From: Mobula hypostoma
Lineage: Eukaryota
Assembly: GCF_963921235.1 (NCBI RefSeq)
Contig: NC_086097.1
Location: forward strand, 157,110,001-157,174,000
Direction: 5' to 3'
DNA length: 64,000 bases
Position numbers and translations under genes: made by a program
The notes under the pieces: model-generated
Told to the model about the DNA's origin: nothing
The model's input: only the letters and a program-made list of their open reading frames with translations
The model's database searches: none
Shown here: positions 47,280-51,118 of the stretch, in pieces
Layout: each line of letters starts with the position of its first letter
How positions within the stretch are numbered: the first letter of the stretch is position 1

Positions 47280-50171
47280 ATATACCTGTCTACAAGTCTC
47301 TTAAGCTTCACTAGTTAATCTGCCTCCACCACTGACTCAGGCAGTGCATTCCACGCACCAACCACTCTCTGAGTAAAAAACCTTCTTCTAATATCCCCCT
47401 TGAACTTCCCATCCCTTACCTTAAAGCCATGTCCTCTTCAATTGAGCAGTGGTGCCCTGGGGAAGAGGCGTTGGCTATCCACTCTATCTATTCCTCTTAT
47501 TATCTTGTACACCTCTATCATGTCTCCTCTCATCCTCTTTCTCTCCAAAGAGTAAAGCCCTAGCTCCCTTAATCTCTGATCATAATGCATACTCTTTAAA
47601 CCAGGCAGCATCCTGGTAAATTTCCTTTGTACCCTTTCCAATGTTTCCACATCCTTCCTATAGTGAGGCGACCAGAACTGGACACAGTACTCCAAGTGTG
47701 GCCTAACCAGAGTTTTATAGAGCTGCATCATTACATCACGACTCTTAGACTCTATCCCTCGACTTATGAAAGCTAACACCCCATAAGCTTTCTTAACTAC
47801 CCTATCCACCCGTGAGGCAACTTTCAGGGATCTATGGACGTGTACCCCCAGATCTCTCTGCTCCTCCACACCACCAAGTATCCTGCCATTTACTTTGTAC
47901 TCTGCCTAGGAGTTGTCCTTCCAAAGTGTACCACCTCACACTTCTCCGGGTTGAAATCCATCTGCCACTTCTCAGCCCACTTCTGCATCCTATCAATGTC
48001 TCTCTGCAATCTTTGACAATCCTCTACACTATCTACAACACCACCAACCTTTGTGTCGTCTGCAAACTTGCCAACCCACCCTTCTTCCCCTACATCCAGG
48101 TCGTTAATAAAAATCACGAAGAGTATAAGTCCCAGGACAGATCCTTGTGGGACACCACTAGTCACCACCCTCCAATCTGAATGTACTCCCACCACCACGA
48201 CTCTCTGCCTTCTGCAGGCAAACCAATTCTGAATCCATCTGGCCAAACTTCCCTGGATCCCATGCCTTCTAACTTTCTGAATAAGCCTACCGTGTGGAAC
48301 CTTGTCAAATGCCTTACTAAAATCCATATAGATCACATCCATTGCAGTACCCTCATCTATATGCCTGGTCACCTCCTCAAAGAACTCTATCAGGCTTGTT
48401 AGACATGATCTGCCCTTCACAAAGCCATGCTGACTGTCCCTGATCAGACCATGATTCTCTAAATGCCCAGAGATCCTATCTCTAAGAACCTTTTCCAACA
48501 GTTTTCCCACCACAGACGTAAGGCTCACTGGTCTATAATTACCCAGATTATCCCTACTACCTTTTTTGAACAAGGGGACAACAGTCGCCTCCCTCCAATC
48601 ATCTGGTACCATTCCCGTGGACAACGAGGACATAGAGATCCTAGCCATAGGCTCAGCAATCTCTTCACTCGCCTCGTGGAGCAGCCTGGGGAATATTCCG
48701 TCAGGCCCTGGAGACTTATCCATCCTAATGTATTTTATCAACTCCAACACTTCCTCTCCCTTAATATCAACATGCTCCAGAACATCAACCTCACTCATAT
48801 TGTCCTCACCATCATCAAGTTCTCTCTCATTTGTGAATACCGAAGAGAAGTATTCATTGAGGACCTCACTCACTTCCACAGCCTCCAGGCACATCTTCCC
48901 ACCTTTATCTCTAATCGGTCCTACCTTCACTCCTGTCATCCTTTTTTTCTTCACATAATTGAAGAATGCCTTGGGGTTTTCCTTTACCCTACTCGCCAAG
49001 GCCTTCTCATGCCCCCTTCTTGCTCTTCTCAGCCCCTTCCTAAGCTTCTTTCTTGCCTCCCTATATTCCTCAACAGACCCATCTAATCCCTGCTTCCTAA
49101 ACCTCATGTATGCTGCCTTCTTCCACCTGACTAGATTTTCCACCTCACTTGTCACCCATGGTTCCTTCACCCTACCGTTCTTTACCTTCCTCACCGGGAC
49201 AAATTTATCCCTAACATCTTGCAAGAGATCTCTAAACATCGACCACATGTCCATAGTACATTTCCCTGCAAAAACATCATCCTAATTCACAACCACAAGT
49301 TCTAGCCTTATAGCCTCATAATTTGCCCTTCCCCAATTAAAAATTTTCCTGTCTTCTCTGATTCTATCCTTTTCCATGATAATGCTAAAGGCCAGTGAGC
49401 GGTGGTCACTGTCCCCCAGATGCTCACCCACTGAGAGATCTGTGACCTGACCCGGTTCATTACCTAGTACTAGATCTAGTATGGCATTCCCCCTGGTCGG
49501 CCTGTCCACATACTGTGACAGGAATCCGTCCTGGACACACTTAACAAACTCTGCCCCATCTAAACCATTGGAACTAATCAGGTGCCAATCAATATTAGGG
49601 AAGTTAAAGTCACACATGATAACAACCCTGTTATTTTTGCATCTTTCCAAAACCTGCCTCCCAATCTGCTCCTCTGTATCTCTGCTGCTACCAGGGGACC
49701 TATAGAATGCCCCCAATAGAGTAACTGCTCCCTTCCTGTTCCTGACTTCCACCCATACTGACTCAAAAGAGGATCCTGATACATTACCCACCCTTCCTGT
49801 AGCTGTAATAGTATTATGACCAGTAATGCCACCCCTCCTCCCCTTTTTCTGCCCTCTCTATGCCTTTTAAAGCACTGAAATCCAGGAATATTGAGAATCC
49901 ATTCCTGCCCTGGTGCCAGCCAAGTCTCTGTAATGGCCACTACATCATAATTCCATGTATGTATCCAAAATCTCAGTTCATCACCTTTGCTCCTGATGCT
50001 TCTTGCATTGTGGTACACACATTTCAGCCCTTCTACCTTATTGTCTTTACACCCTTTATTCTGCTTCTCTTTCCTCAAAGCCTCTCTATATGTTAGATCT
50101 GGCTTTACTCCATGCACTTCTTTCACAGCTCTATCGCTCTGGGTCCCATCCCCCTTGCAAATTAGTTTAAA
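47280..50171 (-). pseudogene. CR1 ORF2 (APE endonuclease + RT) with a few frameshifts
   Basis: 49578..50126 NARSI..AITETWL; 49282..49791 DFNFP..LDLVL..SDH; 47890..49254 [31 protein letters not shown]; 47438..47869. Confidence 0.92.
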
Positions 50172-51118
50172 CCCTCCCGAACCATGTCAGCGAACCTACT
50201 TGCAAGGATATTGCTCCCCCTCGAGTTCAGGTGCAACCCATCCAATCTGTACAGGTCCCACCTTCCCCAGAAGAGATCCCAATGATCCAAAAATCTAAAA
50301 CCCTGCTCCCTGCACCAACTCCTCAGCCACGCATTCAACTGCCATCTCCTCCAATTCTTACCATCACTGTCACGTAGCACTGGCAGCATTCCTCAGAACG
50401 CCACCCTTGAGGTCCTGTTCTTTAGCCTTCGGCCTAGTTCCCGAAACTCACCCTTCAGGACCTCATCCCTCTTCCTGTCTATGTTGTTGGTCCCAACATG
50501 TATCATGACTTCTGGTTGCTTTCCCTCTCGTACCAGGATGTCGTGCACCCGGTCAGAGACATCCCGCACCCTGGCACCCAGGAGGCAACAAACCATGCGG
50601 GTGTCCTTCTCACGTCCACAAAATCTCCTGTCTGCTCCCCTGACTATAGAGTCTCCAATGACGACAGCCCTCCTCTTCTCCGTCCCACCCTTCTGCACCA
50701 CCGGCTCAGACTCAGTGCTGGAGGCTCTGCCACCATGGCTCACACCTGGTCGGTCGTCCCCGCCAACAGTAACCAGGACAGTAAACTTATTATTCAGGGG
50801 AATGGCTACAGGGGTGCTCTGCACTACCTGTCTGCTCACCTTCGCTTTCCCCGCTCTGACTGTCACCCAATGACCTGCTTCCGACAGCCTAGGTGTGACT
50901 ACCTCCCTGTAGCTCTCATCTATGACTGCCTCATTCTCCCTTATGAGTCGAAGGTCATCCAGGTGCTTCTCCTTACACGGTCCTTACAGATTCCTTACAC
51001 AGTCTTCCAGATCGCCCAGCCGTACGCACTTCTGGCAGATGTCACTCTGCGGGAGAGGGGCGTTCCCCCAAAACTGCCATATCTCACATGAGAGGCACAT
51101 CACCGTCTCAGGAGGCAT
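50162..51118 (-). pseudogene. CR1 ORF1 (zinc finger/leucine zipper + SGNH esterase)
   Basis: ATG at 51118 gives MPPETVMCLSC..ICQKC..; 50393..50866 VVIGDSIVR..HVGTN; 50162..50389 DGLHLN..GLN*. Confidence 0.88.

Follow-up and report, generated by a model that had tools for sequence, protein, structure and literature searches.

According to the available excerpts of two articles (PMC3708506, PMC5009743), it is unclear how the second open reading frame (ORF2) of a long interspersed nuclear element (LINE) is translated when the RNA is bicistronic. The question is raised again by a CR1 element of the ray Mobula hypostoma, here called copy A, in which no ATG precedes the endonuclease motif of ORF2. 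Copy A, by sequence a CR1 LINE of the esterase-ORF1 (shark/ray) type, lies in a stretch of 64,000 nucleotides (contig NC_086097.1 of assembly GCF_963921235.1, positions 157,110,001 to 157,174,000, forward strand), hereafter the window, across which LINE fragments are abundant. At the ORF1/ORF2 junction of copy A and its relatives we find a slippery heptamer of the form X_XXY_YYZ in register with ORF1, an adjacent stop codon, an overlap of the two frames, an open linker, synonymous conservation of the heptamer and an exchange among three heptamers. We consider it probable that a share of ribosomes slips by -1 at the CR1 heptamer, making an ORF1-ORF2 fusion. Ribosomes whose P and A sites are occupied by the heptamer would in part move back one base just before the ORF1 stop and so enter ORF2, and the remaining ribosomes would terminate and release the ORF1 protein (ORF1p). 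The fusion would be gag-pol-like and the source of active ORF2, and the adjacent stop and a G run beginning at +8 to +13 from the heptamer are candidate helpers.

The ORF1/ORF2 junction in the window

ORF1 of copy A ends in GGT TTA AAC TAA on the minus strand (Table 1), as a first-pass annotation of the window had read it and as re-reading confirmed. The -1 frame reads FKLICKGDGTQSDRAVKE... and continues for 54 codons without a stop or an ATG up to the APE endonuclease motif HNARS, the Asn of which is codon 55 (~50009); its earliest in-frame ATG is at offset +387 (~49784), well past HNARS. The annotation had also described the -1 frame as open into the endonuclease. This is correct as far as HNARS, but the frame runs from stop to stop between 50186 and 49578, not from 50126. 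Its further claim, that three subfamilies with different flanks have the site in common, holds: the heptamer recurs in copy B (5702-5696, minus strand) and in copy C (51612-51618, plus strand), and the linkers of the three copies are unlike in sequence and length. The absence of an ATG before the endonuclease motif, by contrast, is borne out for copy A and not for the other two. The -1 frame of copy B is open for 74 codons to the APE Asn with an ATG at codon 14, and in copy C, which is broken further down, the stop overlaps an ATG (TAATG) at codon 4 of the -1 frame. The string TTTAAACTA occurs four times in the window versus 0.96 expected, a count reached in 2 of 100 shuffles; three of these occurrences are the CR1 junctions, and the fourth (58641) is without the G tract. 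Copy C (window 51545-54600, plus strand) is 5'-truncated ~60-70 bases upstream of its own heptamer. Copies A and C are arranged head to head, their junctions forming an inverted pair 1.44 kb apart.

Conservation of the slippery heptamer

A metagenome scan by esterase motifs only, blind to the junction, returned 44 loci: 13 CR1-type loci reaching the ORF1 end, nine loci of a related group (the HP group, see below) and 22 that stop short of this end or do not have it. All 13 CR1-type loci have a slippery heptamer in register, namely T_TTA_AAC in ten bird-like loci, G_GGA_AAC in two (L041, L042) and G_TTA_AAC in one (L047). The excerpt of PMC5009743 places U_UUA_AAC and G_GGA_AAC with the heptamers most prone to shifting and cites G_UU(A) from equine arteritis virus. 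A table of junctions that includes the window copies has 16 entries; in each of them, as well as in L083, found later, the heptamer keeps a fixed register with ORF1. The ORF1 stop after it is TAA, TAG or TGA, with AAG in one decayed copy. The -1 frame is free of stops to the APE Asn in 10/16 junctions (three are cut by contig ends and three decayed), with linkers of 33-84 codons, and the overlap comprises 1-37 open -1 codons upstream of the heptamer. The ORF2s of L041 and L047 are 41-42% identical to that of copy A, as is the case with the bird-type loci.

Conservation of the synonymous positions, which the first-pass annotation had proposed as a check, was found among these CR1s. In LN-type junctions, where ORF1p ends in Leu-Asn, the Leu codon is TTA in 14/14 cases, whereas TTA accounts for 21/172 Leu codons in the upstream part of these ORF1s. 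The Asn codon is AAC in 16/16 junctions versus 22/62 upstream. An equally conserved Leu, that of the motif DGxHL, lies 20-27 codons further up and is encoded by CTG, CTT, CTA or TTG and in none of 13 loci by TTA; in copy A it is CTG. An Ala ahead of the site is GCT before TTA (e.g. L056, L058) and GCG before GGA (L042), and thus the X base tracks the heptamer rather than the residue. Exchange between slippery heptamers is what programmed -1 frameshifting predicts. The earlier suggestion of a gag-pol-like ORF1-ORF2 fusion is supported by the heptamer conservation, the fusion protein itself being a prediction.

The same tendency is seen within one young CR1 family, that of genome G001. All 17 distinct junctions keep the third-position T of a codon that is otherwise variable (TTT, TAT, TGT), AAC is present in 16/17, and in 10/17 neither a stop nor a Met precedes the APE Asn, which is codon 45. 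G001, a bacterial metagenome-assembled genome of 17.8 Mb, contains at least 17 copies of the family (L001, L013-L040) and therefore likely carries animal host DNA; among 400 genomes of its order, one of them left unscored, the only match was in G001 itself.

Could the conserved bases serve DNA or RNA processing, as an internal promoter, a splice acceptor or the footprint of an endonuclease target? TTTAAA resembles a TATA-like box or an APE target, and TAG is a possible acceptor. However, the shark copies have TAA rather than TAG, GGGAAAC matches none of these signals, and the lock to the ORF1 frame extends to the 16 junctions and L083, so that such a signal appears highly improbable.

Variation among copies was followed in contigs of four runs placed on 50080-50300. 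Across positions 50158-50177, no variant is present among the 40 rows listed for the four runs, 57 further rows falling outside this listing. In run X1 (10,679 contigs), all places with A>C, A>G, A>T, T>C or T>G are accounted for, none of them within the heptamer; third positions upstream vary by 3-14%, and CTA, TTG and an altered X base are each below 1% at the heptamer. Depth peaks at 50152-50175 relative to both flanks. RNA-labelled run X15 was rejected as evidence of expression, being composed of contigs only under a label that is a guess.

ORF1 protein ends and phylogeny

In sharks and rays, ORF1 homologs whose end is intact have LN as their last two residues, and the residue ahead of these varies (26 LN and one IN among 27 rows chosen for a complete end). 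The set was extended by searching 1.84 billion proteins with a profile. LN-ending ORF1s are found in sharks, rays, eel, sturgeon, snake, lizard and turtles, and a distant group from the profile search ends in QGN. Out of 266 proteins, 175 have the last esterase motif followed by a tail of 18-45 residues, and 87 were left after thinning to <70% identity; among these 87, 38 have an end other than LN or GN. Residues without a T-ending codon (K/E/Q/M/W) precede the terminal LN in 0/32 proteins versus 28/128 at positions -4 to -7 (P=0.0014, an optimistic, that is too small, value given that the sequences are related), and they precede the terminal GN in 16/17. Residues without a G-ending codon, in turn, stand before GN in 0/17 and before LN in 14/32. 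This pattern is expected if the last base of the preceding codon must match the next two.

In a quick tree of the esterase, the vertebrate LN ORF1s (copy A with sturgeon, eel, turtle, snake and lizard) form one branch with a support of 97, and further LN and GN groups fall outside it. Other ORF1 ends include SKN (P0155, P0208, P0240), an internal xKN (P0159, P0184, P0194, P0252) and FFR or FLR (P0149, P0163, P0246, P0247, P0251). Judging from the residues, heptamers of the form A_AAA_AAC or U_UUU_UUY would be compatible with the xKN and FFR/FLR ends. In the tree, P0208 and the G_GGA_AAC locus L041 are sisters, with a support of 99. In P0025, P0045 and P0100, the esterase continues into FKL..., an indel near the junction placing ORF1 in the -1 frame. 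Among the longer proteins, a search for natural single-ORF fusions of ORF1 and ORF2 gave only two unrelated matches, which is weak evidence.

The downstream region

The region downstream of the heptamer is 58-73% purine, and its sole conserved feature is the G run. Gly codons within the G tract are GGG in 19/28 cases versus 19/93 further down; this preference points to a nucleotide-level signal. The G tract had been put forward as a stimulator in the first-pass annotation. Its sequence is indeed conserved, but no structure is, and its role as helper is a candidate one. Since a conserved stem-loop is lacking, the likelier helper would be a non-canonical structure or a G-run-binding protein. No convincing conserved site with which the G run could pair over a long range was found, copies A and C matching best each other's inverted junction; C-rich stretches ~600-680 bases upstream are among the top three partner candidates in six loci.

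Constraint on the proteins might also fix the codons through the overlap, if ORF1p had to end in LN and the ORF2 protein (ORF2p) to begin with FKL..G.G. The -1 frame opens with F/G/V-K-L in all junctions, with a Gly near codons 7-9, as this would require. Nevertheless, ORF1 may end in GN and the -1 frame may open with GKL or VKL, the GGG bias of the Gly codons points to the nucleotides, and translation of FKL upstream of any start codon would itself require a shift. We regard constraint at the protein level, too, as scarcely credible.

Frameshifting and re-initiation compared

Several observations weigh against -1 frameshifting as the route to ORF2. Efficient -1 shifting in eukaryotes normally requires a stimulator. 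The classical one, a stem-loop or pseudoknot 5-9 bases downstream, was not found, and no conserved stem-loop or pseudoknot emerged (fold z-scores of -2.5 to +1.6; RNAalifold with 0 pairs in 10 loci), with tools covering neither pseudoknots nor protein-bound stimulators. The ten open-linker loci were picked for reaching APE in the -1 frame, so the values from shuffling are biased and descriptive only. An in-frame ATG is found at codon 5 in 4/9 bird-like loci, besides those of copy C and copy B, and only in copy A and the G001 family is Met absent before the APE Asn. Run X1 has one G>A place outside the listed rows, at which AAC>AAT is possible. Among the rows of the tree, 29/88 are without an LN or GN end outside the HP group, these being known from protein only, and P0061, dropped by thinning, ends in ELN.

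These ATGs bear on the possibility that ribosomes terminate and then re-initiate, yielding ORF2p as a protein of its own, either SART1-like through UAAUG or L1-like and independent of AUG, the conserved sequence being the context of this event. Both modes are described (PMC3708506 for the SART1 coupling, PMC5009743 for L1, each as excerpted). Copy C has TAATG where copies A and B have TAATT; the ATG of the four bird-like loci lies 2 bases past the stop, and GTG is found there in two more. Because of these near-stop ATGs in bird-like loci and copy C, re-initiation stays viable for some lineages. However, the start codon varies in place and identity, the stop-overlapping codon being ATT, ATG, GTT, GTA, GGT, GGA and others, and the stop itself varies between TAA, TAG and TGA. 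The UAAUG overlap typical of SART1 is present in 1/16 junctions, that of copy C, and is not conserved. A conserved ORF2 ATG, which the first-pass annotation had named as an argument against a shift, is absent overall and present in some lineages. Finally, re-initiation leaves the joint switch of six pre-stop bases between UUUAAAC and GGGAAAC unexplained. We therefore hold it to be an unlikely general route to ORF2p.

A combination of both processes, in which the slippery site is real but the shift is minor, regulatory or a relic and ORF2p comes mostly from re-initiation, with differences between lineages, would accommodate the near-stop ATGs of some lineages as well as the lack of a structural stimulator. 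It would not account for a site that is conserved, with exchange of heptamers, all the way from sharks to birds and also in deep branches of non-vertebrate type; this points to lasting selection on the shift. Accordingly, we rate this combination as less plausible still than re-initiation proper.

Comparison with known systems

Entry into the ORF of a polymerase by a -1 shift is known from other systems. Retroviral gag-pol and ORF1a/1b of coronaviruses and arteriviruses share with CR1 the same heptamers, the register, the position at the end of the first ORF and a polymerase ORF in the -1 frame. Unlike the retroviral and coronaviral sites, those of CR1 have no conserved 3' stem-loop or pseudoknot and are followed by a purine-rich linker with the G run, which sets the CR1 site apart from classical structure-stimulated frameshift sites. 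Also unlike retroviruses, CR1 is a retrotransposon without long terminal repeats (non-LTR), and a domain scan detected no protease domain in the scanned regions of copy A. Within non-LTR elements, TRE5-A and TRE3-A of Dictyostelium need a -1 frameshift for ORF2 according to a figure legend in the excerpt of a review (PMC5911963). Compared by description and not by junction sequence, they are of the APE type like CR1 but belong to another clade and host and have another ORF1. The UAAUG coupling of SART1 and the unconventional initiation of L1 address the same bicistronic problem as in CR1; they predict a separate ORF2p and no slippery heptamer.

The domain architecture of copy A resembles that of 'CR1 subgroup 7' with its type IV ORF1 (zinc finger/leucine zipper and esterase), which in the excerpt of PMC4120745 likewise combines a Cys motif, an esterase and APE with reverse transcriptase (RT). 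That excerpt calls the subgroup exclusively vertebrate; here, deep LN/GN branches that fall outside the vertebrate LN branch of the tree share the architecture. No report of a CR1 -1 frameshift was found in the literature searched, the scope of which did not extend to the founding chicken and turtle CR1 papers of the 1990s. The words 'frameshift' and 'readthrough' are absent from PMC4120745, and 'frameshift' from PMC3905857. As far as the excerpts go, 'CR1' does not occur in PMC5009743, PMC13405545 mentions frameshifting for viral 2A peptides only, and PMC5006619 adds nothing on TRE frameshifting. Scans of viral contigs with four alignments turned up no LINE junction and one unrelated-looking esterase (L012), with 0 matches to a junction pattern, and plasmids and phages gave no match.

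Among the LINEs of birds, turtles and cartilaginous fishes, CR1 is the dominant one. If frameshifting operates as proposed, a gag-pol-like fusion would link the CR1 reverse transcriptase with the esterase of ORF1. Such a shift would account for ORF2s without a start codon and alter the annotation of full-length CR1s. The site would also represent a cellular -1 site that seemingly works without a classical RNA structure.

The HP group

The HP group of fish-like loci, named after its DGxHP motif, comprises L044, L045, L046, L051, L053, L061, L065, L074 and L080, and the heptamer is absent in 9/9. Their ORF2s are 24-25% identical to that of copy A where measured. In eight of the nine, the ORF1 stop is TGA followed by C, extended as TGA CTA G in two. 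The APE motif lies in frame 0 without an intervening stop in 7/9, and four of these seven are without Met, two of the four being near-identical. UGA-C is a readthrough-prone stop context, and readthrough of a stop codon is the other retroviral route to gag-pol in the excerpt of PMC5009743. Although the loci are few, their ORF2 would fit a candidate stop-codon readthrough. If so, the fusion protein would be the selected outcome. We tentatively suggest, as an idea with somewhat less than an even chance of being correct, that LINEs with an esterase ORF1 recode in two ways. CR1 would use a -1 shift (at UUUAAAC, GGGAAAC, GUUAAAC and perhaps AAAAAAC) with a structure-free G-run stimulator, and the fish L2-type elements UGA-C readthrough.

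Organization and relatives of copy A

Copy A is near full-length and dead, and the proposed mechanism applies to active source elements. The first-pass annotation had called it full-length, whereas both ORF1 and ORF2 are broken. A Cys motif read in translation, C-x2-C-x16-C-x2-C, begins at 51097 in the N-terminal part of ORF1 and is followed by the esterase at ~50662-50213 (PF13472, E=1.9e-13, 51.7 bits versus a cut-off of 32.9). The damage to ORF1 consists of a duplication (50970-51012) and a stop (50393-50395). ORF2 is interrupted by frame breaks and stops and retains matches to PF14529 (APE, E=8.6e-12) and PF00078 (RT, E=3.2e-31), both above their cut-offs. A short tandem repeat takes the place of poly(A) at the 3' end of CR1 elements. 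A short-repeat 3' tail is common to copy A and CR1 subgroup 7 as excerpted (PMC4120745).

Table 1. Coordinates of copy A and of the CR1 junctions within the window
Feature	Position	Strand	Description
CR1 copy A	47168..51118	minus	ORF1 ATG to 3' tail; decayed; 5' UTR extends further up
ORF1, copy A	50162..51118	minus	Cys-pair zinc-finger-like motif and SGNH/GDSL esterase; broken
-1 frame, copy A	49578..50186	minus	open from 5 codons upstream of the heptamer; linker of 48 codons, then APE start
Slippery heptamer T TTA AAC, copy A	50165..50171	minus	X_XXY_YYZ register with ORF1
ORF1 stop TAA, copy A	50162..50164	minus	directly 3' of the heptamer
G tract GGGGGATGGG, copy A	50145..50154	minus	11 bases past the heptamer; position kept across lineages
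Remainder of ORF2, copy A	47890..49857	minus	APE endonuclease and reverse transcriptase; broken
3' tail, copy A	47168..47188	minus	three 7-base units, TTCTATG
Junction, copy B	5676..5702	minus	other subfamily; GGT TTA AAC TAA, GGGGGATGGG at +11
Junction, copy C	51612..51638	plus	GAT TTA AAC TAA TG, GGGGGATGGG at +11

Relatives of the copy A ORF1 are found in Mobula, where identity reaches 88-90% in parts, and in further cartilaginous fishes, among them Hypanus, Leucoraja and Stegostoma. Its ORF2 is 41-44% identical to those of bird-like and GN/G_TTA loci and 24-25% to those of the HP group. Its placement was made via these ORF2 identities and the esterase tree rather than via named CR1 reference RTs. 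Pieces of CR1 ORF1 are contained in the ray gene models P0018, P0029, P0030, P0049 and P0059 (RPS24, TMEM204, ABHD14A-like and GPR139 isoforms), as either exonised repeats or annotation artefacts. P0020 (MBY9153034.1), labelled as an SGNH hydrolase of Pseudomonas aeruginosa, is 60% identical to the ORF1 of copy A and ends in GLN; its Pseudomonas label likely reflects contamination.

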